The notes below the pieces were generated by a model. The model was not told the DNA's origin, made no database searches, and worked only from the letters and a program-made list of their open reading frames with translations. Positions 409 through 57,723 of a stretch of DNA of 57,723 nucleotides are shown here, piece by piece; positions within the stretch are counted from its first letter, which is position 1, and each line of letters opens with the position of its first letter. Both the position numbers and the translations under genes were made by a program. Source of the stretch: an uncultured Planctomycetia bacterium (GTDB lineage Bacteria > Omnitrophota > Gorgyraeia > Tantalellales > Tantalellaceae); contig CAZMEZ010000001.1 in assembly GCA_964565425.1 (NCBI GenBank), forward strand, positions 1 to 57,723, given 5' to 3'.

Positions 409-416
409 TTAACTGA

Positions 417-459
417 GCATTCGAGATCCGAACTTCGGAAAGGGGAGGATCTCGAATGC
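417..459 (+). other. 13-bp perfect inverted repeat (hairpin) between two plus-strand terminators
   Basis: GCATTCGAGATCC (417-429) pairs with GGATCTCGAATGC (447-459). The 17-nt loop contains CTTCGG. Confidence 0.8.
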
Positions 460-495
460 GGTCGACTTTCGATTCTCGAATTTCGCATCCTCTTC

Positions 496-519
496 GCCAG
501 CCTAAAAACTGGCTTTTTT
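496..519 (+). terminator. Second plus-strand terminator-like hairpin
   Basis: GCCAG / CTGGC stem with an 8-nt loop, followed by TTTTTT (514-519). Confidence 0.55.
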
Positions 520-545
520 ATTTAACCGAACGATCGGACGGATCC

Positions 546-579
546 CAAAAAGAAAAGGCGGGCTCAAATTGAACCCGCC
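546..579 (-). terminator. Intrinsic terminator of the lysine-rich mini-ORF
   Basis: The minus strand reads GGCGGGTTCAATTTGAGCCCGCC, a GC-rich stem, followed by TTTTCTTTTT. Confidence 0.7.
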
Positions 580-606
580 TTTCCCGCAATAATAAGTTCG
601 TTGCTC

Positions 607-708
607 TTACTTCTTCTTTTTCTTCGCTGCCTTCTTTTTCTTTTTCTTCACGACCTTCTTTTTCTTGGCAACCTTTTTCTTCGCTGCCTTCTTTTTCTTC
701 TTCGCCAT
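607..708 (-). CDS. 33-aa lysine/alanine-rich peptide (MAKKKKKAAKKKVAKKKKVVKKKKKKAAKKKKK); too short for the ORF track
   Basis: ATG at 708 is preceded by AAGGAGGGTGAG. TAA is at 607-609, with a terminator 30 nt downstream and a possible promoter upstream. A 24-nt internal direct repeat lies at 619-643 and 676-700. Low-complexity sequence could mimic an ORF. Confidence 0.5.
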   Translation of the reverse strand: MAKKKKKAAKKKVAKKKKVVKKKKKKAAKKKKK

Positions 709-772
709 CTCACCCTCCTTCGTTTGTTAAAAAAATTGTTTTAAATTATCTTTCCTTTTTCTTTTGTTTTAA

Positions 773-800
773 AATATACATTATTTTTCTCGATTTGCAA
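773..800 (-). promoter_or_regulatory. Candidate promoter for the lysine-rich mini-ORF
   Basis: On the minus strand: TTGCAA (795-800), 16-nt spacer, TATATT (773-778). The context is AT-rich, so chance matches are likely. Confidence 0.3.
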
Positions 801-1078
801 GTCTGCGGGTGAAATTTTTTTAATTTTTTCGCGGCGCGTATCCGCGCCGGAAAATAAAAACAGGCACTCTCTCCGCGTGCCCTTGAGTTTGTTTTTGTTT
901 TTTTCCGGATATCTTCTGGGATTCAATAAAATCAGCCGTTGCAGGTGGTCAAAAAAAACGGCACGGCGTCGCTCGACAACTTTTCGTTCTCCGGGAAGAT
1001 AGGTCGGAGCGGGGAATTTTTTTTGGATATGTATTTTTCTTTGGGGAAAATCTTACAATGGACGCGATCCTCGGATCT

Positions 1079-1453
1079 TTATTTCTTTCGGGTTCGACGA
1101 TCTGCGGTATCGCAGGATCCCAGGATCTTTTCGAGGCCCTTCTGCGAGTCTCCGAAAGATTCCACGAACTCAACTGCTATGCCGTAGGTCTTGACCATCT
1201 TCTCGCTTATCGGTTCGCATCGGACAACCCGCGCCGTCCACCGCCCTTCCCCTTTAATGCCGGGGATCGCTATAGCGCAGTCAATAAGTTGGCCTATATC
1301 AAAACTGTCCAGGCTCACGAAATAAACCCCGCCGAGGCTTATATTCTCCGAAAAACAAGTGCCCGCGTGACGGCCGCCGGAACCATGAGGACAGTACCTG
1401 ACGGCGAATTTCCTTTTTGACCTTTTAAATGCCCTCTTTTCGTCTGTTATCAT
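1079..1453 (-). CDS. PilZ domain protein (c-di-GMP receptor family)
   Basis: 124 aa with an N-terminal RSKRK (RxxxR) motif and an ENISLGG (D/NxSxxG) motif. Confidence 0.75.
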   Translation of the reverse strand: MITDEKRAFKRSKRKFAVRYCPHGSGGRHAGTCFSENISLGGVYFVSLDSFDIGQLIDCAIAIPGIKGEGRWTARVVRCEPISEKMVKTYGIAVEFVESFGDSQKGLEKILGSCDTADRRTRKK

Positions 1454-1480
1454 GTCGGATCCCGCTTTTGACGAAGATTT

Positions 1481-3463: not shown

Positions 3464-3505
3464 CGCTCCTCCTGTTCCCTGTTCTCTGTTTTCCTGCTAA
3501 TTGGG

Positions 3506-4299: not shown

Positions 4300-4755
4300 T
4301 TAATCGGTCTTGACCCCCATAAGGGACGATATCCTCGCGTTCTCTTTTACTCTAAACCCGGATTTCCCGACTATGAGTACCGTTCTGTCCACCTGTTGAC
4401 CGCTGGTAATTATAAAGGTCGAGTGGACTACCCCCGCTCCCAGCGTCCGAGCGAGCGGCTGGATCACCCCTATGCAGCCGTCCGGGATCACGACCTTCTC
4501 ATTAAATTCTACAATATATTCACCTGCTGTCAAGTTCCACCATCCATACTTGTCACCCGGGTCCTTTTTGACCGGTTCAAGTTTTTCTACCAGCGCTTCG
4601 TTCGCCTCGCTGCCACCGAAATCTATTGCGCCTTCCTTTTTAACCGTATAGACGCAGGCTACGGTAAGATCAATACCATGGGGTCCGACCTGGTGTTTCT
4701 CGGAAACCAACTTCCCGACACAACCTGTCATTTCCTCTCCCCTGCAAAATCTCAT
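4300..4755 (-). CDS. dUTPase / dCTP-deaminase-fold protein (divergent)
   Basis: 151 aa. GIDLTV near the N-terminus and the length and beta-rich pattern resemble the DCD/dUTPase superfamily. The canonical RSS motif is not clear. The start forms an ATGA overlap with the dtd stop. Confidence 0.45.
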   Translation of the reverse strand: MRFCRGEEMTGCVGKLVSEKHQVGPHGIDLTVACVYTVKKEGAIDFGGSEANEALVEKLEPVKKDPGDKYGWWNLTAGEYIVEFNEKVVIPDGCIGVIQPLARTLGAGVVHSTFIITSGQQVDRTVLIVGKSGFRVKENARISSLMGVKTD

Positions 4756-6656: not shown

Positions 6657-8390
6657 TTATTCCGAAAATCCCATATCAAGGAAATTTTTAAGCTTCTTCG
6701 CCCTTATCGGGTGCCGGAGCTTTTTCAGCGCCTTTGCCTCTATCTGCCGGACCCTTTCCCTGGTCACGTTAAATATCTTGCCCACTTCTTCGAGAGTCCT
6801 GGGATAACCGTCCCCTATCCCGAACCTTAACGTCAGGACCTTTCTTTCTCTTTCCGTAAGCGTGTCCAGGACCTCATCCATTTGCTCCCTGAGCATGGCA
6901 TAAGCTGTGGCATTGGCCGGAGACACGGCCGACTTGTCCTCTATAAAATCCCCGAAACTTGTATCTCCCTCGTCCCCTATGGGTGTCTCCAGGGATATCG
7001 GATGCTGGGCTATCTTGATTATGCCCCTCACCTTTTCAACCGGTATTTTCATGGCAGACGCTATCTCTTCGGGCGTCGGTTCCCTGCCGTTCTCCTGCAC
7101 AAGAGCCCTGGAAACACGCACGAGCTTGTTGATCGTCTCGGTCATGTGTACCGGTATGCGTATCGTCCTCGACTGGTCCGCTATCGAACGGGTTATCGCC
7201 TGGCGTATCCACCAGGTAGCGTAAGTGCTGAACTTATATCCCCGCTCATATTCGAACTTGTCGACCGCTTTCATAAGACCCATGTTTCCTTCCTGTATAA
7301 GATCGAGGAAGGAAAGCCCTCTATTAGTATATTTCTTCGCTATGCTGACCACGAGCCTGAGGTTAGCCGCCACCAGTTCTTTTTTCGCCTTGGTGTACTC
7401 TTTCTCTATCTTCGTGAGGGCGCTATAGTCATTGGCGATCTGGTCAGGCGACCGGCCGATCTTCCTGGCCAGGCTTTTCATCTTGTTCTGGGTCTCTTTC
7501 AGCTCTTTTTTGCCCCGCCCTTTCTTGAGCCTCTCGACCTTGCTCTTGAGCCGCCTTGCCTCTTCCATCGGCTTGGATATCTCCTCGCCGATCTTCTCAA
7601 CAAGCGCTATCGTCACTTTCAGCTTTCTCATCAGCTTAATGACGGTATCCCCCTTCGTGGAAAGCTTTATGCGCTTGATCAACTGCCGTTTGGTATCCTC
7701 GAGCCTGTCAAGATCGGCGCCGGGCTGAATATCAAAAACATCGTCCAGGTTATATTCGTTGTCAAAGGCCTCCTCTATGGAGTCCAGCACCATCGCCCTT
7801 CCCGCTTTTATCATGAAGACTATTTCTTTGAAGTCCTTTTCCTTCTTTTTGATCCGTTTCGCAAGATCCAGCTCTTCGCTCCTGCTCAAGAGCGGTATTT
7901 GCCCCATTTGTTTAAGGTACATCTTTACGGGATCGTCTATCTGGACGAACTTGCGCGCTTTGACCTTCTTCTGGGCGCTCTTGACCGCGAGAGGGATCCT
8001 CTCTACCTCTTCTTCCGATTCCACCACCTTTATATCGGCGCTGTGGAGGGCGGTAATAACCTCGTCGATCTCGCTGGAAGACACCACGTCATCGGGAAGG
8101 ATCTCATTGACTTCGTCGTAACTTAAATACCCCTTATCCTTCCCTGCCCTGATAAGTTTGCGGACTATGGCTGACTTGCTCTTCTCGTGCTCCAGCGATC
8201 CCTCTTCGTCCGCGGCGGGGCCTTCTTCCCGCGATTTTTCGGCCCTGGAAGGTTTTTTTGTCCTGTACGACTCTTTCTTCGCCTTGGCGGCGCGCTTGGG
8301 TTTCGGGGCCTTTTTGGCCTTCTTCGCCTTCTTCTTTGACGCCTTTTTCTTCGCCCTGGCGATCTTCTTTATTTTCTTTTTTCTGGTCAT
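6657..8390 (-). CDS. rpoD: RNA polymerase sigma-70 factor RpoD with a lysine-rich N-terminal extension
   Basis: Regions 2-4 are clear: [73 protein letters not shown] at 8390; the track start at 8396 is a TTG. Confidence 0.95.
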
Positions 8391-11706: not shown

Positions 11707-11820
11707 AATTTCCCCCGTTACATTTGGAATTTGGAATTAGGAGTATATCATATAAATATGGGCAAGTCAAACCGGGCGCAAAGCATATCTTAATTTTGAT
11801 TACATTAATATGGCATATTT

Positions 11821-13887: not shown

Positions 13888-13890
13888 TGG

Positions 13891-13925
13891 TTCGTCCTTC
13901 GTCGTTCGTCGTTCGAATTTCGGAT
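13891..13925. repeat. Degenerate heptamer array (TTCGNNN) x5
   Basis: ttcgtcc ttcgtcg ttcgtcg ttcgaat ttcggat, directly upstream of the rsmE start. A second block, tactcgt cactcgt caccctc, lies at 13961-13981. Confidence 0.9.
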
Positions 13926-13966
13926 TTGATGAATCAAATCCCTACAGGTATACTTCCCGTTACTCG

Positions 13967-29657: not shown

Positions 29658-29662
29658 GTTTC

Positions 29663-42360: not shown

Positions 42361-42399
42361 AGTGAACCGGTTAGCCAGTGGCTGGTTAACCGGTTCACT
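42361..42399. repeat. 13-bp perfect inverted repeat between dut and uppP
   Basis: AGTGAACCGGTTA (42361-42373) pairs with TAACCGGTTCACT (42387-42399). The loop GCCAGTGGCTGGT is itself partly self-complementary. Confidence 0.9.
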
Positions 42400-42401
42400 C
42401 T

Positions 42402-47021: not shown

Positions 47022-47235
47022 TTCAGACATCAGACTCCAGACTTCAGACAGACTCACGCCGCAAGGTCGTTAGCCCGTTGTCGGTTTGCCCGTTGCCCGA
47101 TATACAGGCAGACAGGATAACGGGCGAACGGGAAACGACATATCACACATCACTCATCACCCATTACTTCTTTACATCTTTACTTCTTTCGCCTCTTGCC
47201 TTTAGCCTAACTTATCACGTATTACTTATCACTCA
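47022..47235. repeat. Series of degenerate heptamer blocks upstream of truB
   Basis: ttcagac atcagac tccagac ttcagac (47022-47049); catatca cacatca ctcatca cccatta (47139-47166); ttcgcct cttgcct ttagcct; aacttat cacgtat tacttat. Confidence 0.85.
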
Positions 47236-47256
47236 ACCCAACATATGCGCTCTACG

Positions 47257-48607: not shown

Positions 48608-48657
48608 GTTGTCGCTCCGCTCCTATCGTCTCTTGTCACTCGTCACCCGTCACTGCT

Positions 48658-48955: not shown

Positions 48956-51607
48956 TCACCCGCGGCTCTTTATGAGTTTTCTCATATAATAGAGCTCGTC
49001 CTTCTTGGTCGCGAGATTACCGTCGAGTTTCGCGTAAAGTACTTTCTGGAGCAATTCCTTGTACCGCGGACCCGGAACTATCCCCTCTTTCTCTATGTCG
49101 TCGCCCCTTATGGAAAGCTTTGTGCCGTTATAATCGGTAAAAAATCTTTTGATGCGCCTGCGGGCTATCGCGGACTTTGTCTTGGCCGTTATACAAAGCG
49201 AGACTTCATGCGCAAGAGGTTCAAGAATGCCGTACACGGCGCTGGGCTTCATATTTTTCCTTGAAGATAGCTTCCTCAGGACCTTGTCGCCGTCCCTCTT
49301 ATATGATCTTATCCTCAGGCTTTCGCTCCTCGTAAAAACGAACTTTTCAAGGACCTCATCCACCTGTTTCGGGGCAAGCTTATCCAGCATTACCATGAGG
49401 TGTATCAACCAGACATCCAGCTTCCGCTTCCGCGCGGCGCGCTCTTCGTACCATTGCACGGCCTTCTTTATTTCGGTGAAAAGCTTCCTTATCGATCTCT
49501 TCAGGACCAGCTCGGGATGTATGAACCTGAGCTCGTGCAGCTCCCTCATCCTTAGAACGGCCTTTTCGGGATCCTTCTCCTTCAGCATAAGTATCAGCTC
49601 GCCCCTGATCCTCTGATTTTCCGTTCTGCTGAACATCTCCTGCTTTATCGCGTGCTTGATAAGATACTCCGTGTGCTTTTCTATTTCGAACCCGAACCGC
49701 TGCTCGAACCTGACCGCCCTGAAGATCCGGGTAGGATCATCAATAAAACTGTTATCATGAAGCGCCTTTATGACGCCTTTCTCCAGGTCTTTAATGCCGT
49801 CGAAAAAGTCCAGGAACAGCCCGAAATCCTTTCTGTTTATCCTGACAGCCATGGCGTTGATCGTAAAATCACGACGATAAAGATCCTCCTTGAGCGAACT
49901 GAATTTCACCGTGGGAAGAGCGGCCGGCGCCGCGTAAGTCTCCTTTCGGGCCATGGCTATATCTATCTTGAACTTGTTGTCGGGGTGAAGGGACGGCCCC
50001 AGCCATTCGGGCCAGTCCGTTACTACCGTGGAGGTCCCGAACTTCCTGTGAACGACAAGAGAGCCGCGCAATTTATCCGCTATAACCTTGCCGAACTTTA
50101 TCGCGTCGCCCTCCATCACTATATCAAGGTCATAATTCTTCTCCCCCAGGAAGATATCCCTGACAAAACCGCCTACGAGAAAAATATTTATTCCGCGCGC
50201 GTCGGCCTCGGAGCTTATGGACCATATCAGCCGCATAAGTTTCTTCGGGAGCATCGATTCCATTTTGACGGTAACATCGAACACGCCCGGTGTCCGCCCG
50301 CCTTGCGCGGGGAACAGCGAACTATGCACCTTTTTCAACACGTCGGTCCTCGTAACTATTCCCACCAGCTCTTTGCCCTTCAGAACGGGAAGCCGTCCTT
50401 TACCTTCCTCGATAAGGATCCTGCGCAGTTCATGAAGCGGGGTATCGGGCGTAACGGTGACCAGAGGCGCATGCATGTATCCCTTCACCCTTGAATGCCC
50501 CATGCCGCGCTTGATGGCTTTTTTCAGGTCACCCATGGTCACCATCCCGGCCAGTTTACCCGAATCGTCCAGTACCGGCGCGCCTCTGTACCCATAACGT
50601 TCAAGTTTCCCGAGCATATCACGGACCTTTTCCTCCTGGGACACGGTTTTCACGGGGGAAGACATTATATCCCCGGCGTAAACACCGGGGCGTATGATCT
50701 CCTCAAGCATTCTCAATATTTCGGCCTTTATCTCCGCGGGGGATCTTTTCTCCACTCTCGCGCTTGCCGCCGACGCGTGTCCGGCGCCGCCGAAACAGGC
50801 CATCAACTTGTTCATGTCGATAAAGTTCTTGCGGCTCCTGGCCATTATCTTTACCCTGTCTCCCGTCTTGAACATGGCGAACAATACCGGATAATTCTCA
50901 ACTTCCTGCAATTTATGCACCACCGTTCCCATTTCCCCCACGAAATGCCTGGCTTCCACGCTGGAAAAAGCCACGTCAACGCCGTGGATATTTTCGACCT
51001 CTATGGACTGCAAGAGATCCACGAACACCGATAGCTCCGCTCCGGAAAGTTCCCTGTTCAAATAGGACGAAACGGCGTTGAGATTAGCCCCCATCCCCAG
51101 AAGCTTGCTAACCATATCAACGTCAAGTTTGGTGGTCGGCGAATACGAAAGCGACCCCGTCTCTTCGTATATGCCGAGAAGCATGAGAGTGGCTTCGAGG
51201 GGGGTAAAATCGAACTTCCCCTCCTTTTCGAGTATCCCGAGCAGGATAGTGACCGTCGCGCCTACCTCGCGGAAGACATCCTTGTCGGCCTTTATGTCGA
51301 AACGGGTCTTCGGGTGGTGGTCATAGATATGCACCTTAATCCCCTTCTTGTCAAGGAGGGAAGCCGCTTCGCCGATACGCGATCTATGACGGTTATCCAC
51401 GATCACCAGGCGCTTCACGTCGTCCATGCGGCATGTTTTTTCGTCCTCGATCCTCACTTTATCCTTTATAAGAGAAAGGAAATTCCTTACAGCTTTCTCC
51501 TGGGATCCCGGGAGCAAAAGACGCGCCTTCGGATATAACTTGCTGGCCGCTACCAGCGAGCTCAAAGCGTCAAAATCAGCGTTCTTGTGTGTTACTATCA
51601 GGTCCAT
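48956..51607 (-). CDS. Multidomain DHH/DHHA1, CBS pair and tRNA nucleotidyltransferase (CCA-adding / poly(A) polymerase family) protein
   Basis: 883 aa. HKNADFDALSS and YDHHP (DHH), GGAGHASAAS (DHHA1), two CBS repeats, then LVGGFVRDIFLG...DLDIV and RRDFTINAM nucleotidyltransferase motifs. Confidence 0.85.
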   Translation of the reverse strand: MDLIVTHKNADFDALSSLVAASKLYPKARLLLPGSQEKAVRNFLSLIKDKVRIEDEKTCRMDDVKRLVIVDNRHRSRIGEAASLLDKKGIKVHIYDHHPKTRFDIKADKDVFREVGATVTILLGILEKEGKFDFTPLEATLMLLGIYEETGSLSYSPTTKLDVDMVSKLLGMGANLNAVSSYLNRELSGAELSVFVDLLQSIEVENIHGVDVAFSSVEARHFVGEMGTVVHKLQEVENYPVLFAMFKTGDRVKIMARSRKNFIDMNKLMACFGGAGHASAASARVEKRSPAEIKAEILRMLEEIIRPGVYAGDIMSSPVKTVSQEEKVRDMLGKLERYGYRGAPVLDDSGKLAGMVTMGDLKKAIKRGMGHSRVKGYMHAPLVTVTPDTPLHELRRILIEEGKGRLPVLKGKELVGIVTRTDVLKKVHSSLFPAQGGRTPGVFDVTVKMESMLPKKLMRLIWSISSEADARGINIFLVGGFVRDIFLGEKNYDLDIVMEGDAIKFGKVIADKLRGSLVVHRKFGTSTVVTDWPEWLGPSLHPDNKFKIDIAMARKETYAAPAALPTVKFSSLKEDLYRRDFTINAMAVRINRKDFGLFLDFFDGIKDLEKGVIKALHDNSFIDDPTRIFRAVRFEQRFGFEIEKHTEYLIKHAIKQEMFSRTENQRIRGELILMLKEKDPEKAVLRMRELHELRFIHPELVLKRSIRKLFTEIKKAVQWYEERAARKRKLDVWLIHLMVMLDKLAPKQVDEVLEKFVFTRSESLRIRSYKRDGDKVLRKLSSRKNMKPSAVYGILEPLAHEVSLCITAKTKSAIARRRIKRFFTDYNGTKLSIRGDDIEKEGIVPGPRYKELLQKVLYAKLDGNLATKKDELYYMRKLIKSRG

Positions 51608-51780
51608 GTTTCAAATTTAAAAGTTAAAAGATAAAATTGAAAATTGCAATTCTAATACCAGAATTAGAGGAAATCCGGATCTCCCCGAAACAAGCACCCT
51701 CTGATATTGACTTCGATGTATGCACTTAATTATAAATTTCTAATTATAATTTTATCTTTTCAATTTTAACTTTTCCATTT

Positions 51781-52668
51781 TTATGCGCGCGGGTGATACT
51801 GTTCGTGTATCTTCCTCAACTTATCCTTATTCACATGAGTGTATATCTGGGTCGTCGATATATCCGCGTGGCCCAGCATCTCCTGGACCCCCCTGAGTTC
51901 CGCGCCTCCCTCCAGAAGATGCGTTGCAAAAGAATGCCTGAGACTGTGCGGAGCAATGTGTTTCTTTATCCCGGCCTGCCGGGCGTATTTCTGTATTATC
52001 TTCCACAGGCTCTGGCGGGATATCTTTTTGCCCAGCCTGGAAAGAAAAAGATGGTCGTCTCCACGGACCTTGCCGGCCAACTTATGCCTCGAGTCCCGGA
52101 TATATCGCTCAACCGCCTTCTCTGCCACTTTTCCGAGAGGCACTATCCGTTCCTTGCCACCCTTGCCCATACACTTAACAAAACCGGCTTCCAGGTTAAC
52201 GTTCATCTTCTTCAGGTTAGTAACCTCCGAAACCCTCAGCCCTGTCGCATACATCAGCTCCAGTATCGCCCTGTCCCTTATGCCCATCCAGCCTTTTCTG
52301 GGCGGAGCGTCCAGAAGCTTTTCGATCTCCTGCCTGTTCAGGACATCCGGAAGCGTCTTCCACGTTTTAGGCGTCTCTACTATGGCAGCAACATTCTCTT
52401 TCACTATCTGCTCAGCCACCATGAATTTCCAGAACGTCTTCATCGCCGCCAGATTTCTCGCGATAGTCGTCGGGGACAACCCTTTATCTTTAAGGTGCAT
52501 GAGGAACTTGACGATGTCATCACGGGTTACACCCGAGACATCTTTGCGCGCCTTTTTAATGTATTCCTCGAATTTCTCAAGATCTCTCCGGTAAGATTCC
52601 ACGGTATTGCGGCTTACGCCTCTCTCAACCTCGAGGAAATATATGAAGTTCTCAATGTGGTTCTTCAT
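51781..52668 (-). CDS. xerD: Tyrosine site-specific recombinase XerD/XerC
   Basis: 295 aa: FIYFLEVERGVSRNTVESYRRDL, RAILELMYATGLRVSE, HSLRHSFATHLLEGGAELRGVQEMLGHADISTTQIYTHV. Confidence 0.85.
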   Translation of the reverse strand: MKNHIENFIYFLEVERGVSRNTVESYRRDLEKFEEYIKKARKDVSGVTRDDIVKFLMHLKDKGLSPTTIARNLAAMKTFWKFMVAEQIVKENVAAIVETPKTWKTLPDVLNRQEIEKLLDAPPRKGWMGIRDRAILELMYATGLRVSEVTNLKKMNVNLEAGFVKCMGKGGKERIVPLGKVAEKAVERYIRDSRHKLAGKVRGDDHLFLSRLGKKISRQSLWKIIQKYARQAGIKKHIAPHSLRHSFATHLLEGGAELRGVQEMLGHADISTTQIYTHVNKDKLRKIHEQYHPRA

Positions 52669-52696
52669 TGTCTCGTCGTTCGAATCTCGTATTTAT

Positions 52697-52817
52697 AGAT
52701 TACGGAGATTCCAAAGAAGATTACAGAGATTATATCTTTGTAATCTAAAAAAAGTTGCCGGATCGTAAATCTTCGTAATCAACGTCTGCCTTTCGCCTCT
52801 AGCCTCTTGCCTTTATC
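52697..52817 (+). repeat. About 120-bp nested-palindrome element, copy 1
   Basis: GATTACGGAGAT (52697-52708) and AGATTACAGAGAT (52717-52729) are mirrored by ATCTTTGTAATCT (52733-52745) and ATCTTCGTAATC (52768-52779). A tail AACGTCTGCCTTTCGCCTCTAGCCTC follows. It aligns with 56816-56934. Confidence 0.85.
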
Positions 52818-52843
52818 CTTTATCCTTTATCCTTTATCCTTTA
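52809..52843. repeat. Perfect heptanucleotide microsatellite (CCTTTAT) x5
   Basis: Five identical tandem units, followed by a degenerate cctcatc. Confidence 0.95.
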
Positions 52844-52855
52844 TCCTCATCCCCC

Positions 52856-53494
52856 TCACACGTCACTGAAAAACGGATTATTCCGCTTCTCATATCCTAT
52901 CGTCGTCTCTGGCCCATGTCCGGGTAAGACCCTGACATCGTCGGGCAGTTTAAAAAGCTTATCCCTGACCGAGATCAACATGGCTTCCGGGTCCCCGCCG
53001 GGAAGATCGGTCCTTCCTATGCCTTCGCAGAACAAGGTATCCCCGCTGAAAAGAACATCTCCGCATCTGAGGGAAATGCTGCCCGGGGTATGCCCCGGCG
53101 TATGCAGGACCGTCATGGACAGCTCTCCCAGCTTTACGATATCACCGTCCGAAAGAAAACGGCTTACCATCTCCGGCCGGACAACGTCTCTCGCGGGAAA
53201 GATCATACTTCTCTGCGAACCGATCAGGCCGGGACCGTCAAGTTCATGGATCAACACCGGGAAACCGAACTCGGTGTCGCCAAGAACATGGTCCAGGTGG
53301 CAGTGGGTGTTCAGGGTAAATTCCACATCGATGCCGCTATCACGAATATGATCCGCAATATCCGGGTCGTAATATCCCGGGTCTATGAGAATACCCTTCC
53401 CGGAGACCCTGTCGTGAGCCACGTAACAATTGGTGTAAAGGCTTCCCACAATGAAGGTTTTTACATCAAGGTTGGGGCTCGGTCCTGAATTCAT
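52856..53494 (-). CDS. MBL-fold metallo-hydrolase (glyoxalase II-like)
   Basis: 212 aa: HCHLDHV (HxHxDH), HTPGHTPGS, GDTLF. Confidence 0.85.
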   Translation of the reverse strand: MNSGPSPNLDVKTFIVGSLYTNCYVAHDRVSGKGILIDPGYYDPDIADHIRDSGIDVEFTLNTHCHLDHVLGDTEFGFPVLIHELDGPGLIGSQRSMIFPARDVVRPEMVSRFLSDGDIVKLGELSMTVLHTPGHTPGSISLRCGDVLFSGDTLFCEGIGRTDLPGGDPEAMLISVRDKLFKLPDDVRVLPGHGPETTIGYEKRNNPFFSDV

Positions 53495-53996
53495 CCCTTA
53501 TACTCCCCCTCACTTTATTATAAGAAAAATCCTCTTTTACGTTCCTGCCGGCCATCTCAAGCGTCCTGCGGATCCTGACCGTATTCCCCCGCGTAACACC
53601 GTTTTTCTTGACATCCGCTTCTATTCCCGCCATCTGGTCTATCAACGGTTGGAGCTGCTCGGCCTTTTCGTCGATAAGCATGCTCTGCAGGTCCATCAGG
53701 TTCGAAACCTCCTGCTCCAGGGATACGATCATTTTTTTCTGGTTAAAATCCTGCTTTCGATCGCTTTCCGCGAGAAGATCAAGAGATTCCCTGTGCCAGT
53801 TCTTCCAGAAAACATATCTCTTCGTATAAAGCTCCAGGGAAGGACGGACCTCATACGTCTTTACCATGCGATACCTCATTGCCGTCCCTTCTTCTTTCGG
53901 CTTCCTTACGAATTTTTCGCTGAGCTGAGCGCACCCGGAAATAAAGAACACCAAAACCAATATCATCGCTATCCAGAAAAAACTTTTCTTCCTCAT
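53466..53996 (-). CDS. Hypothetical lipoprotein
   Basis: MRKKSFFWIAMILVLVFFISGC lipobox. ATG 53996 is preceded by GAGGAG. The longer track ORF begins inside a heptamer array. Confidence 0.6.
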   Translation of the reverse strand: MRKKSFFWIAMILVLVFFISGCAQLSEKFVRKPKEEGTAMRYRMVKTYEVRPSLELYTKRYVFWKNWHRESLDLLAESDRKQDFNQKKMIVSLEQEVSNLMDLQSMLIDEKAEQLQPLIDQMAGIEADVKKNGVTRGNTVRIRRTLEMAGRNVKEDFSYNKVRGSIRDEFRTEPQP

Positions 53997-54100
53997 ATCG
54001 TCTCCTCTTCTTTTAGGCGCAAGGCTAAACGTCAGATTTCGTGTCATGTATTATGACTGCACAACATGACACATGACACAAATCTTTAGATCCCGCCCAA

Positions 54101-54826
54101 CTATCTCCCCACGAACAGCCGCTCCGCGAGCGGCCCGGGAAGGCCCGCTTTAACTATACTTTTCGCGGCGGCATTTATATCGTATTCCACCCTGCGGAAT
54201 TCTATATACTCCTCGTCGGCATCATAAATACAATAACACGCGCGGGGATCACCGTCACGCGGCTGGCCCACGCTGCCCGCGTTCACGATGTACTGCGCCC
54301 CTTCCTCAAGGGCTATCCTTTTCCCTGAAACCCGGCTTATGCTTCCCTCTTTCGATCTGAACACGCCGGGGACGTGCGAGTGCCCCACAAAACATATCTT
54401 TTTTTCCAAAACCTCGAACGTATGCATGGCGTCGGCGCCGGTCATCATGTATATGAACTCCTCGGGTTCGTGCAATGTGCCGTGCGCGACAACGAAAGAC
54501 TCTTCTTCAAGCACGTACGGAAGGTCTTCGAGATACCCGCGGACCGCCGAGTCGATATGCTCCATCGTCCAATAGACCGCCGCGGACGCGTAACTGTTGA
54601 AAAAGGATATATCGGCCTTCCCGACAACACCCGCGTCATGGTTGCCCAGGACGTTCTTCGCCCCAAGCGATTGCACCGCATCCACACACCTGACCGGATC
54701 GGCCCCGTATCCGACGACGTCCCCTCCCGATATTATCCTGCATCCTTCACCAACGGGAAAAGACCCGACCACGGCCTCAAGCGCCTGAAGGTTGCTGTGT
54801 ATGTCGGACAATATGATATATTTCAT
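54101..54826 (-). CDS. Metallophosphoesterase (YfcE/MJ0936-like)
   Basis: MKYIILSDIHSN, GDVVGYG, GNHD, GHSH. The start was placed at ATG 54826, which removes the overlap with acyP. Confidence 0.85.
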   Translation of the reverse strand: MKYIILSDIHSNLQALEAVVGSFPVGEGCRIISGGDVVGYGADPVRCVDAVQSLGAKNVLGNHDAGVVGKADISFFNSYASAAVYWTMEHIDSAVRGYLEDLPYVLEEESFVVAHGTLHEPEEFIYMMTGADAMHTFEVLEKKICFVGHSHVPGVFRSKEGSISRVSGKRIALEEGAQYIVNAGSVGQPRDGDPRACYCIYDADEEYIEFRRVEYDINAAAKSIVKAGLPGPLAERLFVGR

Positions 54827-54864
54827 GCCCCGGGCCCTTCTATTCTTACAGCTTACAGCTTTTT

Positions 54865-55143
54865 TTAAAACCTTATCTCGAACGCCGGAAACTCTCCCGT
54901 TACCGGCTCCCAATCAACCCGGGAGTCGCTTATATACCCGCGCATTTCATTCTTTAATTCCCGCAGGAATATCTCCAGCTGATCCCGGCCCCCTTCGCCA
55001 ACGATCTCGACAGTACCGTCGGGAAGATTCTTTACGAAACCTGTAATGCCGGAACGTGAGGCTATTCTTTCGGTGGCGAACCTGAAACCGACACCATGGA
55101 CTTGCCCGCTATATAACACGTGGACTCTTTGTGCCCGGCTCAT
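54865..55143 (-). CDS. acyP: Acylphosphatase
   Basis: 92 aa: [41 protein letters not shown]. Confidence 0.85.
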
Positions 55144-55164
55144 GTGTGGATTCCCGTTTGAAGG

Positions 55165-55514
55165 ATGGTCGGGGCGCTGGGATCTTACTTCTCACCCGCT
55201 CGTCGACCCCGGCGCCACGAAATATATTTGCGAGGAAGTTTACCGGGGAAACCCTTTTCCCGGGAAACTGCCGGGTAAATATCAAAATAATCTCCCGTCT
55301 CCTGCCACAGGATTATTTTACCATTATAGCGAAGCTAGAATGGTCGGGGCGCTGGGATCTTACTTCTCAACCGCTCGTCGACCCCGGCGCCACGAAATAT
55401 ATTTGCGAGGAAGTTTACCGGGGAAACCCTTTTCCCGGGAAACTGCCGGGTAAATATCAAAATAATCTCCCGTCTCCTGCCACAGGATTATTTTACCATT
55501 ATAGCGAAGCTAGA
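55165..55514 (-). repeat. Two tandem 175-bp repeats, each containing a copy of the last 18 nt of tRNA-Pro
   Basis: 55165-55339 and 55340-55514 differ at a single position (cacccgct versus caaccgct). TGGTCGGGGCGCTGGGAT recurs at 55166, 55341 and 55516, and the third copy is the genuine tRNA 3' end. Confidence 0.95.
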
Positions 55515-55515
55515 A

Positions 55516-55593
55516 TGGTCGGGGCGCTGGGATTCGAACCCAGGACCTCCACGTCCCGAACGTGGCGCGCTAGCCAAACTGCGCTACGCCCCG
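55516..55593 (-). tRNA. tRNA-Pro (anticodon CGG), CCA encoded
   Basis: The reverse complement reads CGGGGCG-TA-GCGC-AGTTTGGCTA-GCGC-G-CCACG-TTCGGGA-CGTGG-AGGTC-CTGGG-TTCGAAT-CCCAG-CGCCCCG-ACCA. Confidence 0.9.
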
Positions 55594-55630
55594 ACATTAT
55601 GTCAACTAGACTATCGGCGATATTGACGTT

Positions 55631-55659
55631 ATGTTATCATCATAATTATATACCGTCAA
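55631..55659 (-). promoter_or_regulatory. Candidate promoter for tRNA-Pro
   Basis: On the minus strand: TTGACG (55654-55659), 17-nt spacer, TAACAT (55631-55636). Confidence 0.35.
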
Positions 55660-55688
55660 CCCAAATGCAGAGGATTTTACCGCGCCGA

Positions 55689-56039
55689 TCAATACGTGAT
55701 GTCTTTGGATCTCTTTTCCAGAAAAAATTCAGGATCCGTAAGGATCGGACCGTAATTTTCCGGGATCGGTATCGGGAAGGTCGCTATTTCAAAGACCCCT
55801 ACTACTATCCTTTTCACAACGTTGACCGTCCCCATAAAAACGCCCCAGGTGCATCCCGCGAAAATACCGCCTCCCTCTTTTGCGTCACCCATGCCCTGGA
55901 TAAGAGCGCACGGTGAGGTCACGACGTTCGCCACTCCCCTGCCCAGTTTTTTGACCGGACCGGAGGTAATGTCATCGGCAATAGCCGTTACGGCCGAGAA
56001 TAACATGATGATAATGAATGTTGCGACGATCTTTCTCAT
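55689..56039 (-). CDS. Small secreted protein resembling the exosortase-system-associated TIGR04073 family
   Basis: 116 aa with a signal peptide, then KKLGRGVANVVTSP...GVFEIATFPIPIP...PEFF, which matches my recollection of that family. Confidence 0.5.
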   Translation of the reverse strand: MRKIVATFIIIMLFSAVTAIADDITSGPVKKLGRGVANVVTSPCALIQGMGDAKEGGGIFAGCTWGVFMGTVNVVKRIVVGVFEIATFPIPIPENYGPILTDPEFFLEKRSKDITY

Positions 56040-56054
56040 TCTCCCCCCTTTGTT

Positions 56055-56143
56055 CCAGGTTCCAGGTGATAGGTATCAGGTTCTAGGTTATAATTAGGCG
56101 TTCAGACAACCTGACACCTAAAACCTAACACCTAGTAACCTGG
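56055..56143. repeat. Inverted pair of heptamer arrays, (NNAGGTN) x5 facing (NACCTNN) x5
   Basis: ccaggtt ccaggtg ataggta tcaggtt ctaggtt (56055-56089), a 19-nt spacer, then aacctga cacctaa aacctaa cacctag taacctgg (56109-56143). This is an imperfect long hairpin directly after the ribE stop. Confidence 0.85.
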
Positions 56144-56767
56144 TTACATGAAACCCTTCTCTCTCAACATATCTTCAGTAATCGAGCTGCTCTTTCCTTT
56201 TTCAGCGTATTTCGCGATAACATCAAACTCCAAGTTAACATAATCTCCCGTTCTTTTCAATTTTAATGTTGTATTATCGAGAGTATGCGGTATCAAAAAT
56301 ACGCGAAGGAAGTCCCGCGATATTTCCCCTACCGTCAGGCTCACTCCGTCGATCGCGACAGAACCTCTCGGGACGATATGCCGCTCATCTCCCGACAAAA
56401 GCCCTACTTCAAGGGTCCATCCCCCGCGGCTCTTCCTGTTACCCCGCACCGGCCTTTCACAATCAACATGGCCCGAAACCATGTGCCCGCTCATACCGTC
56501 TCCTACCTTGAGCGAACTTTCCAGATTTACCGCATCCCCTGTTTTTAATCTTTTGAGGCTGGTTTTATTGAAGGTGTTTTTTACCACATCAAAGGACAGG
56601 GTCTCGCCTTTTTTAACGACACTGAGGCATACGCCGTTCACGGCGACACTGTCGCCGATGCCGATGCCTTCGGCCGTCTTGCGGCACCCTACTTCAAGAA
56701 CGGCGGGATCGCCTTTCCTTGAGATCCTTTTTACCCTGCCTATTTCCGTTATTATGCCTGTGAACAT
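56144..56767 (-). CDS. ribE: Riboflavin synthase (alpha chain)
   Basis: MFTGIITEIGRV...GDSVAVNGVCLSV...GSVAIDGVSLTV. ATG at 56767. Confidence 0.9.
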   Translation of the reverse strand: MFTGIITEIGRVKRISRKGDPAVLEVGCRKTAEGIGIGDSVAVNGVCLSVVKKGETLSFDVVKNTFNKTSLKRLKTGDAVNLESSLKVGDGMSGHMVSGHVDCERPVRGNRKSRGGWTLEVGLLSGDERHIVPRGSVAIDGVSLTVGEISRDFLRVFLIPHTLDNTTLKLKRTGDYVNLEFDVIAKYAEKGKSSSITEDMLREKGFM

Positions 56768-56815
56768 GTTGTTTCGCCCCCGCATTCAGATATCAGCGGG
56801 TGTATTGCGTGATTT

Positions 56816-56934
56816 GATTACGGAGATCAATAAAGATTGCGAAGATTAAATCTTTGTAATCTAAAACCATTGCCTATATTACAAATCTTCGTAATCAACG
56901 GCTCCCTTTAGCCTCTAGCCTCGCGCCTTTAGCC
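56816..56934 (+). repeat. About 120-bp nested-palindrome element, copy 2
   Basis: GATTACGGAGAT (56816-56827) and AGATTGCGAAGAT (56834-56846) are mirrored by ATCTTTGTAATCT (56850-56862) and ATCTTCGTAATC (56885-56896). The tail is AACGGCTCCCTTTAGCCTCTAGCCTC. It overlaps the ribD stop codon and the last roughly 13 codons. Confidence 0.85.
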
Positions 56935-57723
56935 TTCACCACCCGTCCCCGTACAAATATATCCTCTCCCGACCTTTTTATTTGCAACTCTCTCAGGTCC
57001 AGCGCTTTCGCGATATTAGGAGCGCCCTTTCCTTTTATCGAAGAACATCCTCCGCCGATTATCTTAGGTGATATAAAGAACATCACTTCATCGACAAGGC
57101 CGTCATCTATCAGGCTGCCGACCAGTTCGCCGCCCCCTTCCACAAGTATATTGACCATTCCGTCCCGCGCAAGCGCGGAGAGAAGAGACTTCATCGATAC
57201 CCTTTTATTTTTGCTCTTTACCTTTAGCACCCGCACCCCTTTGATCTTACTGAACTTTTTTATCTTTTCCCCGGGCGCGAGTCCGGTCACCCCTATTATT
57301 ACAGGGGCCTTACGGGCGGTATTGATTATATTCGAGATAAAAGGCGTTCTAAGGCGGGTATCCGCTACAACGCGCGAAACAGCGTACCCTTTTCTTTTTT
57401 CATCGAGGAGAAAAGGATCATCTTTTATTACCGTCCCCGAACCAACGAGTATAGCGTCGTATCCGGCGCGCATCTTTTTAACCAGCTTTCGCGACACTGC
57501 GGAAGATATCCATTTAGACGAACCGTCCCTGGCGGCTATCTTACCGTCCATGGACTGGGCCAGCTTCACGGTCACATAAGGAAGACCTTCGGTGACGAAC
57601 TTGATGTACTTGCGGTTAAGGAGCCGCGCCTTTTCTTCAAGAAGTCCGACATATACCGATATTCCCGCGTTTCTGAGCCTTTTCGCGCCACGGCCGCTAT
57701 TCAGGGGATTCGGGTCCTTCATT
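56895..57723 (-). CDS. ribD: Riboflavin biosynthesis protein RibD (deaminase/reductase), C-terminal part; the 5' end lies beyond the window
   Basis: NPLNSGRGAKRLRNAGI is the end of the deaminase domain. The reductase domain follows: PYVTVKLAQSMDGKIA...ILVGSGTV..DDP...VEGGGEL. Confidence 0.85.
   Translation of the reverse strand, partial: MKDPNPLNSGRGAKRLRNAGISVYVGLLEEKARLLNRKYIKFVTEGLPYVTVKLAQSMDGKIAARDGSSKWISSAVSRKLVKKMRAGYDAILVGSGTVIKDDPFLLDEKRKGYAVSRVVADTRLRTPFISNIINTARKAPVIIGVTGLAPGEKIKKFSKIKGVRVLKVKSKNKRVSMKSLLSALARDGMVNILVEGGGELVGSLIDDGLVDEVMFFISPKIIGGGCSSIKGKGAPNIAKALDLRELQIKRSGEDIFVRGRVVKAKGARLEAKGSR

Follow-up and report, generated by a model that had tools for sequence, protein, structure and literature searches.

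Drifting heptanucleotide arrays in the intergenic DNA of a Candidatus Omnitrophota lineage

Many spacers of the window, that is, of the whole 57,723-nucleotide stretch of DNA analysed here, contain short runs of related heptamers, which raises the question of what kind of repeat they represent and how they arose. In the intergenic DNA of many prokaryotic genomes, heptanucleotide repeats stand out as over-represented, polymerase slippage was proposed as their cause, and heterogeneous (GGGANTN)n arrays, mostly of four units, were described together with inverted array pairs and turnover between species (Mrazek 2007, as represented in PMC4679880 and PMC4692102). The original prediction that such arrays had not been described was therefore too strong. 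Relative to the repeats covered in these two sources, the chains of many different short arrays, the Omnitrophota host and the inflation of operon junctions are new. Run counts at 90 unrelated loci (3, 34, 49, 7, 44 and 5 for periods 5 to 10) fit the over-representation and the slippage proposal as given there. The Omnitrophota arrays add a new and clear-cut example to a bacterial repeat class that is already known, though unexplained, and do not amount to a novel kind of system.

Period-7 signal and its extent

Identity at lag 7 was 0.341 in the non-coding DNA of the window versus 0.263 ± 0.007 across 500 dinucleotide-shuffled controls (z = 11.5, 0/500), and lags 14 and 21 were likewise elevated (z = 8.2 and 5.2), whereas the coding DNA showed period 3 alone, without a lag-7 signal, in the same identity-by-lag analysis. 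The excess foreseen for non-coding sequence was thus found. The run scan detected 20 runs of period 7, and 0, 2, 1, 2 and 0 runs of periods 5, 6, 8, 9 and 10, respectively. Correlation at multiples of seven was down to baseline by lag 35-42, i.e. 5-6 units, which implies blocks of about 3-5 units and agrees with the claimed switching of the unit every few copies.

Tandem Repeats Finder returned about 30 arrays with period 7 or 14, matching the predicted positions exactly or within a few bases. They included 1941-1978, 2004-2037, 2041-2067, 3471-3490, 11722-11742, 13890-13915, 13958-13977, 15953-15972, 15996-16020, 25351-25381, 26202-26227, 29607-29657, 47023-47164, 48635-48653, 51613-51636, 51727-51781, 52787-52847, 54064-54080, 54845-54861, 56052-56134 and 56905-56936. 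Detectable arrays were present in 16 of the 28 spacers and made up about 20% of intergenic bases, so the description of spacers as built from heptamers is overstated window-wide. The run at 466-493, with three units, is a weak case.

Architecture of arrays, hairpins and recurring modules

Arrays were compared with those of a sister species and with syntenic relatives having the same gene order and about 65-82% protein identity to the window. The PFK to PCC-domain gene spacer contained an AAGGWTW array of 5.4 units (1941-1978), a hairpin (1980-2037) with heptamer arrays as arms (GTGTAAT GTGTCAT ... ACACATG ACACATT ACACATG) and an AACCAAT array of 3.9 units (2041-2067); the spacer at 1919-2248 folds with z of about -5.5. 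A CCTGTTC array of 2.9 units (3471-3490), reading AACAGRG in the sense direction, continues into GGAGG, the ribosome-binding site of the PFK gene, and three units of ATTTGGA (11722-11742) separate the CvpA gene start from a conserved stretch which reads, by eye, like a promoter; the sister species has fewer of these units and the 72% relative none. TTCGTCS (3.7 units) followed by TTCGRAT (two units; 13890-13925, sense strand CGAACGA) adjoins an RNA methyltransferase start codon. The sister species keeps this array, the remainder of the spacer differing (79 versus 174 nt), and the flanking genes overlap in the 72% relative. Directly 3' of the Memo/AMMECR1 stop codon lie 2.9 units of CGTCACT (13958-13977). 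The trailer of tRNA-Ala (16053-16128, minus strand) carries AATCGAG and TCGAATG arrays of 2.9 and 3.6 units (15953-16020), a cassette that some sister-species strains have swapped for an unrelated 55 nt; a location of these arrays inside a protein gene was rejected, the site being downstream of the tRNA-Ala gene.

Upstream of an HTH-cupin regulator gene, TACGCTG/AATGCTG units and 4.4 units of ACGCYGN (25325-25381) occur a second time at 25603-25633, where a tandem duplication of 252 bp has copied them. An ATCGTRA array of 3.7 units (26202-26227) directly precedes AAGGAGG, the ribosome-binding site of a plus-strand response-regulator gene, and 7.1 units of TTATCCT (29607-29657; sense strand AAGGATR) take up the whole 56-nt gap between response-regulator and HD-domain genes. 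The 8-nt period claimed at 42341-42400, in the dUTPase to BacA gap, proved to be essentially a hairpin with 17-bp arms (GTGAACCGGTTAGCCAG / CTGGTTAACCGGTTCAC; z about -7), of which a 22-mer recurs inverted at 2083-2104 (22 nt, 100%; pair I9). The DHH to TruB spacer (47023-47256) is a chain of blocks: four units of TCAGACA; 4.3 of CGTTGCC, with an inverted partner at 47118-47137; 3.9 of ACNCATC; 3.2 of the 8-nt TTACTTCT; GCCTYTW; and ACTTATC-like units. The DUF503 to RbfA gap holds 3.7 units of GTCACYC (48628-48653).

In the 173-nt spacer between XerD and a poly(A) polymerase-like gene (51609-51781), about 85 nt are enclosed by two arrays in inverted orientation, A-rich at 51613-51651 and T-rich at 51735-51781 (39 nt, 79%; pair I1). 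Directly after the lactamase_B stop codon, 3.7 units of GCCTYTW pass through one substitution into 5.4 perfect units of CCTTTAT (52787-52847; two units fewer in the sister species). A hairpin with heptamer-array arms (GTGTCAT / ATGACAC) overlaps the start of a 193-aa gene (54038-54080) and exists as a 152-nt version in the sister species; it is a partial paralogue of that at 1980-2037 (repeat family D17: 43 nt, 77%). A CTTACAG array of 2.4 units (54845-54861; CTGTAAG) in the acylphosphatase/metallophosphoesterase gap has two full units in the window versus four in the sister species. Finally, in the gap between RibE and a 116-aa gene (56052-56134), 5.4 CCAGGTK-type units and 3.9 units of the reverse-complement AACCTRA form a hairpin of about 26 bp.

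The predicted recurrence of word families at distant loci was borne out for GCCTYTWGCC (6 matches at three loci versus 0.54 expected) and AAGGWTWAAGGWT (9 at three loci versus 0.03). TCGAATTTCG was also present at three sites (476, 13913 and 16003), slightly off the predicted positions and with marginal significance (3 of 100 shuffles reached three matches). Ten pairs of different spacers had 12-mers in common, versus 0.98 expected. Larger modules, of ~95 nt and ~110-160 nt, occurred in 2-4 copies each. The ~95-nt composite module at 1945-2040, of which the AAGGWTW array is the first part, has two sister-species copies (L095 3160-3251 and 7139-7230). A dispersed ~110-nt element with four GATTACRRAGAT motifs, joined to heptamer arrays (52690-52800, minus strand), has a paralogue at 56815-56905 (repeat family D4: 109 nt, 79%), where the second copy continues into a GCCTYTAGCC heptamer array (56905-56936; whole unit 56815-56936, minus strand). 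Furthermore, the A-rich array at 51613-51651 matches the non-orthologous DHH to TruB spacer of the sister species (39 nt, 92%). Recurrence of array-plus-hairpin modules at different spacers was less expected and suggests copying between loci.

Lineage restriction and turnover

The window is part of a Candidatus Omnitrophota chromosome, and the arrays occupy non-coding DNA in a single genus-level clade of that group. No period-7 runs were found by the run scan in the five relatives that carry the XerD-PNPase block (L084, L092, L093, L094 and L098; 72-82% identity); a further relative, L215, has the Memo block in the same gene order. Gap lengths differed correspondingly: 187 nt in the window and 178 nt in the sister species versus 7-13 nt in relatives for lactB to XerD; 173 and 189 nt versus -1 to 8 nt for XerD to poly(A) polymerase; about 200 and 329 nt versus -4 to 14 nt for DHH to TruB; and 50 nt and 125 nt (the latter of unrelated arrays) versus 12-27 nt for DUF503 to RbfA. 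Since gaps of about 0-15 nt in relatives at the first three of these junctions contrast with 50-330 nt in the window and sister species, the arrays are, on this comparison of sequences, a lineage-specific inflation of operon junctions.

The arrays are not assembly artefacts, because the sister species, independently assembled from several metagenomes, has arrays at the same junctions. Of six overlaps between its contigs from different samples, four were 99.95-100% identical; the fifth pair differed by one 7-nt indel alone, and the sixth was identical save for a replaced segment beside tRNA-Ala. L095 and L096, metagenome consensus contigs of this species from two samples, differed over 4,948 nt solely by a 7-nt gap, which equals a single CTAGGTT unit of the 56052-56089 orthologue, and this one indel between consensus contigs is the support for within-species polymorphism. 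Between window and sister species, (AAGGATA)n carried a 14-nt, two-unit indel, and orthologous spacers had some blocks in common and others differing as whole blocks.

Origin of the arrays

These one- and two-unit differences directly support the slippage-like process originally proposed. We consider it reasonably probable, at about two chances in three, that the arrays are lineage-restricted heptanucleotide microsatellites which owe both their origin and their remodelling to replication slippage or to a closely similar form of misalignment. Each step would add or remove 7 nt (one unit) or 14 nt (two units at once), with fast gain and loss; any local heptamer could seed an array, so the unit would be locus-specific. 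Point substitutions would alter a unit, and renewed amplification of that unit or of a dimer would generate the shared core, drifting edges and block switches. As seven is not divisible by three, arrays would be purged from coding DNA and accumulate in gaps alone, where their growth would extend operon junctions from an ancestral length of about 0-15 nt to 50-330 nt. An array facing its own reverse complement would form a hairpin, with arms probably keeping pace via templated correction or weak selection, and some composite array-plus-hairpin modules would be copied from spacer to spacer. We infer that slippage at the fork is the enzymatic cause and that most arrays are nearly neutral; the route of module copying between loci is likewise inferential. 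Slippage alone does not explain the 7-nt size, the occurrence in this clade without its close relatives, or modules at non-orthologous spacers.

No support was found for the other explanation put forward, namely a periodicity selected for structure or protein binding. The unit varies by locus, with 25 arrays falling into about 14 families; orientation is unbiased (sense-strand purine content 0.574, equal to bulk; 15 of 25 arrays purine-rich), direct arrays were without RNA structure in the fold test, and the five XerD-PNPase relatives carry no arrays. Divergence is ordinary, with window-sister identity of 83% in arrays, 82% at other spacer positions and 73.5% at four-fold degenerate sites, and window spacers gave no match to Rfam families. 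Pointing the other way, arrays in the lactB to XerD spacer (46/48) and tRNA-Ala trailer (41/45) are conserved far above four-fold sites, which hints at constraint on at least these modules. Many arrays also adjoin ribosome-binding sites or start codons and, from this placement, may affect expression of the adjoining genes.

Heptamer arrays in the intergenic DNA

The window represents a 57.7-kb piece of a bacterial chromosome, with most of the genes located on the minus strand. Pfam scans identified, among others, UvrA, RpoD, DnaG, FtsK, PNPase, a XerD-like recombinase and two-component systems, and tRNA genes were found at 296-373 (tRNA-Met), 16053-16128 (tRNA-Ala, minus strand) and 55516-55593 (tRNA-Pro, minus strand). 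For PNPase, XerD and the Memo/AMMECR1 protein, the nearest named homologue is in each case from Candidatus Omnitrophota.

Arrays were listed with Tandem Repeats Finder (TRF), runs were counted with a separate simple run detector and 500 dinucleotide-preserving shuffles were used as the null. TRF returned about 30 arrays of period 7 or 14 in the window, almost all of them in intergenic gaps and at the positions where the original prediction had placed them. Lag-7 identity in non-coding DNA reached 0.341 versus 0.263 ± 0.007 in the shuffled controls (z = 11.5), and was raised at lags 14 (z = 8.2) and 21 (z = 5.2) too, whereas in coding DNA it stayed at the baseline (0.247) and the usual period 3 was the sole periodicity. 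The run detector found 20 period-7 runs in the window, compared to 0, 2, 1, 2 and 0 runs for periods 5, 6, 8, 9 and 10. Both the lag-7 score and the run counts show an excess over chance for the arrays taken collectively.

Most arrays consist of 3-5 units, the maxima being 7.1 units at 29607-29657 and 5.4 perfect units at 52810-52847. In the non-coding DNA of the window the correlation at multiples of lag 7 was back at the baseline by lag 35-42; therefore, the blocks truly switch unit after approximately 3-5 copies, as had been described from inspection by eye. The switches are partly single-step drifts of the unit, as from GCCTTTA to TCCTTTA at 52787-52847. The TRF score was often higher at period 14 than at period 7, which is expected if diverged dimers re-amplify. 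Among 25 arrays about 14 unit families were distinguished, with 15 close unit pairs versus 6.1 expected. The description of spacers as built from heptamers suits 29607-29662, 47023-47256 and 52787-52847, but is too broad for the window as a whole, where arrays are present in 16 of the 28 spacers and make up about 20% of the intergenic sequence. The locus 42341-42400, to which a period of 8 nt had been ascribed, is a strong hairpin instead. Recurrence at three distant loci was confirmed for the words GCCTYTWGCC (6 matches, 0.54 expected) and AAGGWTWAAGGWT (9 matches, 0.03 expected); for TCGAATTTCG three matches were found, at coordinates slightly off those first proposed, and this case is marginal.

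The sole array in coding sequence is a weak one (ACGAYTC, 4.6 copies, 27973-28004), located in a histidine kinase gene with a HATPase_c domain. The same unit family is present in a spacer of the sister species (contig L095, approximately 7240-7262), a match that may be due to chance.

Operon junctions in the sister species and in array-free relatives

Five Omnitrophota contigs (L084, L092, L093, L094 and L098) encoding PNPase or XerD 72-82% identical to those of the window have their genes in an order identical to that of the window throughout the XerD-PNPase block, and contig L215, with a Memo protein of 72% identity, has the Memo block in common with the window. The gaps in these relatives are tiny: 7-13 nt between lactamase_B and XerD, -1 to 7 nt between XerD and the poly(A)-polymerase-like gene and -4 to 13 nt between DHH and TruB, and in L215 the Memo and methyltransferase genes overlap. 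The corresponding gaps measure 187, 173, about 200 and 79 nt in the window and 178, 189, 329 and 174 nt in the sister species (contigs L081, L095-L097 and L212-L214), whose proteins are 88-92% identical to those of the window. Not a single period-7 run was detected in the five contigs or in the more distant L085 and L086 (68-70% identity); the sister species, on the other hand, possesses 12 such runs in 16.8 kb and bears arrays at the same junctions. A scan of metagenome contigs with the 883-aa DHH/CBS/poly(A) polymerase-like protein recovered relatives at 61-70% identity only, and these were used as array-poor controls. From the contrast between the tiny, array-free gaps of the relatives and the long ones of the window and its sister it follows that the array-filled spacers are not ancestral regulatory regions but the result of operon junctions having been inflated recently within a single genus-level clade. 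Literature searches returned no description of operon junctions growing from about 10 to 50-330 nt relative to syntenic relatives.

We consider it the best explanation, with a probability of roughly two in three, that heptanucleotide microsatellites driven by slippage would have accumulated in the non-coding DNA of one Omnitrophota clade, the composite modules being copied between spacers as a secondary step. Alignment of orthologous spacers revealed both unit-sized and block-sized differences between window and sister, at a background of 73.5% identity at four-fold degenerate sites (n = 788). The lactamase_B-XerD spacer is 94% identical and exhibits a 14-nt, i.e. two-unit, indel in (AAGGATA)n, while the spacer between XerD and the poly(A)-polymerase-like gene is about 74% identical. 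The DUF503-RbfA spacer is unalignable, with TGACGRG units in the window versus a TAAGGGA hairpin and CGGTTCA units in the sister; in the DHH-TruB and Memo-methyltransferase spacers some blocks are common to both species, the remainder of these spacers differing in whole blocks. Over all alignable positions the identity was 83% in arrays and 82% in the rest of the spacers, and with regard to substitutions the arrays are thus not set apart by either protection or speed. They change mainly by block-sized and unit-sized indels.

Differences of the same kind were observed within the sister species. Its contigs L095 and L096, originating from different metagenomes, differ by no substitution in 4,948 nt and by one 7-nt gap at the level of consensus contigs, and this gap corresponds to one CTAGGTT unit in the array orthologous to 56052-56089 of the window. 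Together with the two-unit indel between window and sister, this supports the slippage-like process initially suggested. The alternative suggested alongside it, selection for periodicity, found no support: arrays show no orientation bias, diverge like the remaining spacer DNA and, where direct, are unstructured. A larger difference was located just 3' of tRNA-Ala, where L212 (9066-9181) carries, as does the window, a 115-nt cassette of hairpin and heptamer array, in place of which L213 and L214 (29-83) have 55 unrelated nucleotides, with flanks 100% identical at consensus level. It should be added that contigs of the sister species tend to end within module-bearing spacers. Our conclusion is that a mutational process generated the majority of the arrays and that these are nearly neutral.

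It could be argued that the arrays arose in sequencing or assembly, as the window is a metagenome-assembled contig and repeats are prone to mis-assembly. The arrays measure 17-60 nt, however, which is below the sequencing-read length, and the same junctions bear arrays in independent assemblies of the sister species (JGI, ENA and Logan). Of six comparisons between these assemblies, four gave 99.95-100% identity, the remaining two differing by the 7-nt indel and by the replaced segment adjoining tRNA-Ala. The independent assemblies effectively refute the artefact reading, the probability of which is practically negligible.

Spacer anatomy, folding and dispersed modules

On the sense strand, a typical spacer leads from the stop codon through a first array, sometimes a hairpin, and a second array to the ribosome-binding site and the start codon. 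Arrays reach the ribosome-binding site or start codon at 3471-3490, 13890-13925, 26202-26227, 29607-29657 and 47023-47057, a placement consistent with functional cis-elements that tune expression. Such elements could serve as copy-number spacers similar to contingency loci, as unstructured ribosome standby sites or, in the case of inverted pairs, as terminator or stabiliser hairpins. The Shine-Dalgarno-like AAGGA inside AAGGATR units, the position of the 11722-11742 array downstream of a conserved stretch read by eye as a promoter, and the conservation of some array-bearing spacers at 94% versus 73.5% for four-fold sites point in the same direction, as do the stable hairpins formed by inverted arrays at 56052-56134, 1980-2037 and 42341-42400. 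Furthermore, an expression-controlling heptanucleotide promoter repeat is known for Haemophilus influenzae hmw1A, a topic of PMC8262952 and PMC12721329. Nevertheless, this role is unlikely: the flanking housekeeping operon genes are expressed with gaps of 0-15 nt in the relatives, units of the AAGGATA family are found in sense (29607 and 52810) as well as antisense (1945) direction, array divergence overall equals that of other spacer DNA and a simple promoter/terminator scan did not single out the arrays.

In approximately half of the array-bearing spacers an array is accompanied by a nearby reverse-complement array, forming hairpins with 7-nt-periodic arms (1980-2037, 47066-47137, 51613-51781, 54038-54080 and 56052-56134). 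The hairpin at 56052-56134 is kept in window and sister with one compensatory pair, which, with two species only, is weak evidence. In a per-spacer fold scan direct arrays were unstructured as RNA and strong folding was confined to a few hairpin-bearing spacers. An explanation by RNA structure was rejected for the spacer between XerD and the poly(A)-polymerase-like gene: in the comparison of two sequences its folds were not more stable than those of shuffles (z = -1.1 and 0.0), although the per-spacer scan, run separately, yielded z of about -2.3 for the window copy. Among known RNA families (Rfam) only tRNAs reached gathering scores and none matched the spacers, nor did a search in E-value mode of 1-2300 and 51500-57000 give a credible match. 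Selection specific to one strand, at transcript level, was rejected as well, because the sense-strand purine content of the arrays (0.574, with 15 of 25 arrays purine-rich) equals that of the bulk strand and orientation is mixed.

Strict periodicity with only partly conserved unit cores would also be compatible with platforms for a protein that reads the 7-nt spacing on DNA or RNA, with cold-shock-like, S1-like or nucleoid-associated proteins as candidates. Three units add up to 21 bp or roughly two turns of the helix, a point made in the original prediction, and cold-shock proteins, S1 and CsrA were put forward as ligands of the TAACTGA repeats of Beggiatoaceae (PMC4679880). Yet the units are unrelated between loci, so that no single sequence-specific binder fits; neither strand nor orientation is preferred, the close syntenic relatives are devoid of arrays and block turnover is fast. 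Taken together, these observations make a binding platform very improbable.

Several arrays form part of larger composite modules. A module of about 95 nt, composed of an AAGG array, a GTGTNAT hairpin and ACAAGACTC, is located at 1945-2040 and in part at 54038-54080, and is present at two loci of the sister species in copies 94.6% identical to each other. Another element, of about 110-160 nt, contains four GATTACRRAGAT motifs (7 matches, 0.02 expected), two direct and two inverted, with an AGGCNAG array attached. It occupies the lactamase_B-XerD and RibD-RibE junctions, with copies at 52690-52800 and 56815-56905 in the window and at 4409-4566 and 8424-8582 in L095. This element comprises a possible, predicted promoter (TTTACG-N16-TAGATT), and its orthologous spacer copy is 94% identical between window and sister versus 73.5% at four-fold sites, because of which it is probably functional, as a candidate operator/promoter cassette. 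The 16-mer CGTTGATTACGAAGAT of the dispersed element gave more than 100 single chance matches in unrelated taxa, the pattern being too short for the 596-Gb collection. Palindromic modules recur likewise, namely a 22-mer hairpin arm at 2083-2104 and 42355-42376 and the hairpin at 1977 and 54038, with 2-4 copies in about 95 kb. Moreover, a 39-nt match of 92% connects 51613-51651 of the window with the DHH-TruB spacer of the sister, although the orthologous spacers of that window locus share only about 74% identity.

The occurrence of composite modules at differing spacers is not explained by slippage alone. Small non-autonomous mobile or recombining mosaic elements, of REP/BIME, REPIN or MITE-like type, may be the main colonisers of the spacers, with heptamer arrays and hairpins being incidental; the junctions would then have been inflated by insertion rather than by slippage in place, and slippage would only alter the elements later. 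Apart from the ~95-nt module and the GATTACRRAGAT element with its AGGCNAG array, found in two copies per genome, this is favoured by 12-mers common to ten pairs of different spacers (0.98 expected), by the 39-nt match joining non-orthologous spacers of two species, by the exchange of an entire cassette next to tRNA-Ala between strains with otherwise identical flanks, and by the tendency of sister contigs to end in such spacers. Nonetheless, no terminal repeats with target-site duplications were seen at the module borders and no transposase was identified among the annotated proteins in a non-exhaustive search. A Pfam scan of the approximately 30 window proteins revealed no RAYT (Y1 transposase) gene. 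The spacer between XerD and the poly(A)-polymerase-like gene, which harbours an inverted pair of array arms and has "empty" sites in the relatives, showed no target-site duplication, and these arms are permuted unit arrays, not the collinear terminal repeats of a MITE. Furthermore, copies number just 2-4 in about 95 kb, the arrays are mostly unique to their locus and the within-species change seen is a one-unit indel, not an insertion. Mobile elements are thus a somewhat unlikely primary cause. Within the preferred reading, slippage followed by module copying, the copying may as plausibly have occurred by ectopic recombination, or by a template switch from one array to a similar one, as by transposition. 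Judging by their sequence conservation, certain modules may be under constraint, above all the tRNA-Ala trailer and the spacer that holds the GATTACRRAGAT element.

REP, BIME and REPIN sequences are short palindromic or mosaic intergenic modules, which also occur within operons, break short-read assemblies and differ between close relatives. Like them, the modules of the window recur in intergenic DNA and differ between close relatives; unlike them, they lack an observed high-copy consensus palindrome, RAYT or transposase, are 7-nt periodic and amount to 2-4 copies. The small dispersed repeats of cyanobacteria (PMC3116915) belong to the same comparison class.

Some features around the tRNA genes and elsewhere in the window should be mentioned separately. 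The region following tRNA-Met (372-590) contains three successive strong terminator-like hairpins (372-415, 497-520 and 556-580) and a hairpin with a 13-bp stem (420-455), and folds with z of about -9 on both strands. At 607-708 (minus strand), a 33-codon ORF for MAKKKKKAAKKKVAKKKKVVKKKKKKAAKKKKK, with the strong ribosome-binding site AAGGAGGG 5' of it, is the origin of the 18- and 24-nt repeats listed by TRF at 597-702; its product may be a small and highly basic protein. At 55162-55593, adjoining tRNA-Pro on the minus strand, a 175-bp unit is present in 2.1 copies, each closed by the tRNA 3' end, and L095 has one copy of the unit and one tRNA-3' fragment; the arrangement looks like an att-site remnant of a tRNA-integrated element, duplicated further in the window. 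A tandem duplication of 252 bp, with copies 99% identical, was found at 25239-25742 in the divergent gap adjoining uvrA. It covers the upstream region with heptamer arrays and the 5' end of a HTH_3/Cupin regulator gene (25635-26201, plus strand), and may be either genuine or a product of collapse or expansion during assembly. In the sister contig L213 (7725-9455) rpoD was called as two ORFs, for regions 1.1-1.2 and 2-4, 27 nt apart, whereas in the window it is a single gene of 579 aa, the acidic linker of which has 9- and 15-nt repeats (8308-8355); the split may reflect repeat-associated variation or sequencing error. Finally, the stretch 32000-36000 has a low GC content (0.39-0.44 versus about 0.52 elsewhere) and may have been acquired horizontally. 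It carries an aldehyde dehydrogenase gene and a small gene matching, by synteny, the HTH_17 gene of relatives; the AT-rich gap of 358 nt that comes next is free of heptamer arrays.

Relation to known heptanucleotide repeats and occurrence in other lineages

The record of heptanucleotide repeats in bacteria goes back to the work on STRR of heterocystous cyanobacteria, the classical case, with a few fixed unit families (CCCCAGT, TTGGTCA and CAACAGT). STRR were reportedly described by Mazel et al. in 1990 (cited in PMC4692102) as tandem heptamers in non-coding DNA at many loci per genome. The window shares with them the tandem heptamers in non-coding DNA at many loci, but its host is a Candidatus Omnitrophota member, not a heterocystous cyanobacterium, and none of the three units occurs in tandem on either strand. 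In H. influenzae, the promoters of hmw1A and hmw2A are separated from the start codons by 7-nt tandem repeats whose copy number shifts by slippage; these are long single-unit tracts at genes for surface adhesins of a host-adapted pathogen. Several window arrays seem, from their coordinates, to be similarly placed between promoter or ribosome-binding site and start codon, but they are short, degenerate and located in housekeeping operons.

According to PMC4679880 and PMC4692102, which refer to Mrazek, Guo and Shah (2007) and, as a further source, to Huang and Mrazek (2014), heptanucleotide repeats are over-represented in many prokaryotic genomes, where no other class of long simple-sequence repeats (LSSR) is as abundant. 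They dominate among unit lengths that are not multiples of three, are intergenic and scattered over phyla, and polymerase slippage was proposed for them, with an explanation by polymerase footprint. The window arrays resemble this class in their head-to-tail 7-nt units, their non-coding location and, at consensus level, the change of copy number by whole units. They differ in being short (3-8 units), degenerate and chained, with a unit that changes every few copies, and in their host phylum, Omnitrophota, which lies outside the lineages reported there.

Rehm et al. (2015) described intergenic (GGGAATC)n in Xanthomonas and (GGGGAYT)n in Nostoc, the heterogeneous (GGGANTN)n having mostly about four units; some form convergent, hairpin-capable inverted pairs, and length and sequence vary among close species (PMC4692102). 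A conserved core with variable positions, intergenic location and some inverted pairs are seen in the window as well. In those genomes, however, one G-rich, G-quadruplex-capable family dominates, versus about 14 unrelated families here; GGGAATC, GGGGATT and GGGGACT were not found in tandem in the window, and no array unit contains a G3 tract. In marine Beggiatoaceae, 2-6 tandem copies of TAACTGA precede start codons, mostly at a distance of just a few nucleotides and also at housekeeping genes, one unit sequence being used genome-wide and related heptamers seldom repeated (MacGregor 2015; PMC4679880). Short tandem runs close to start codons are seen in the window too, but its units are locus-specific, and TAACTGA is present as a single, non-tandem copy on each strand. 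Multicopy elements of Geobacter metallireducens contain runs of four or five heptanucleotides, which in some cases form pairs on the two strands (PMC2700814); short intergenic runs and inverted pairs are common features, but 49 and 16 dispersed copies with one consensus each contrast with the locus-specific units of the window.

Membership in the STRR1-3, TAACTGA, GGGAATC or GGGGAYT families was rejected, none of those units being tandem in the window. The arrays therefore belong to the prokaryotic heptanucleotide repeats but to no named family, and the view that nothing like them had been described was too strong. What is particular here are the many short, chained arrays of different units, the host phylum, the inflation of operon junctions compared to syntenic relatives and the recurring array-bearing modules; the literature that was searched yielded no specific account of heptamer arrays in Omnitrophota, nor of chained arrays that switch their unit.

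The system offers an unusually clean natural comparison between inflated junctions of 50-330 nt in one clade and main junctions of about 0-15 nt in array-free syntenic relatives of approximately 65-82% protein identity. It permits comparing the replication and repair gene content of array-rich and array-free sisters, measuring unit-number polymorphism from existing metagenome reads and asking whether a purely mutational ratchet can enlarge bacterial non-coding DNA. On the practical side, array spacers break short-read assemblies and differ among otherwise identical strains.

The pattern known from the literature was also seen in a sample of 90 unrelated loci (1.47 Mb), where periods 5, 6, 7, 8, 9 and 10 gave 3, 34, 49, 7, 44 and 5 runs, and the period-7 arrays clustered in Acidobacteriota, Nitrospinota and Syntrophobacteria, frequently as inverted pairs. 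It is doubtful, yet conceivable, that arrays and hairpins are the product of an active lineage-restricted process and not of generic polymerase slippage. This process could rest on a variant of a replication or repair enzyme that moves in 7-nt steps. Alternatively, tiny intergenic cassettes of a new class could expand and copy themselves. In both cases tight operon junctions would be colonised, and promoter- or operator-like sequence such as that of the GATTACRRAGAT element would at times be brought along. The process might also be active in array-rich Acidobacteriota, Nitrospinota, Syntrophobacteria and cyanobacteria. If this were true, comparison of clades with and without arrays could identify the responsible gene and answer the long-standing question of the preference of bacterial repeats for 7 nt.

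Dense, locus-specific period-7 arrays were also noticed around the pnp genes of L022, L059, L043, L044, L012, L048 and L017, which come from unrelated MAGs of Syntrophobacteria, Pyrinomonadaceae and other Acidobacteriota, and Nitrospinota. In L059, 3.6 copies of GAATGCG are followed by 4.1 copies of TCCGCAT, i.e. an array and its reverse-complement array.
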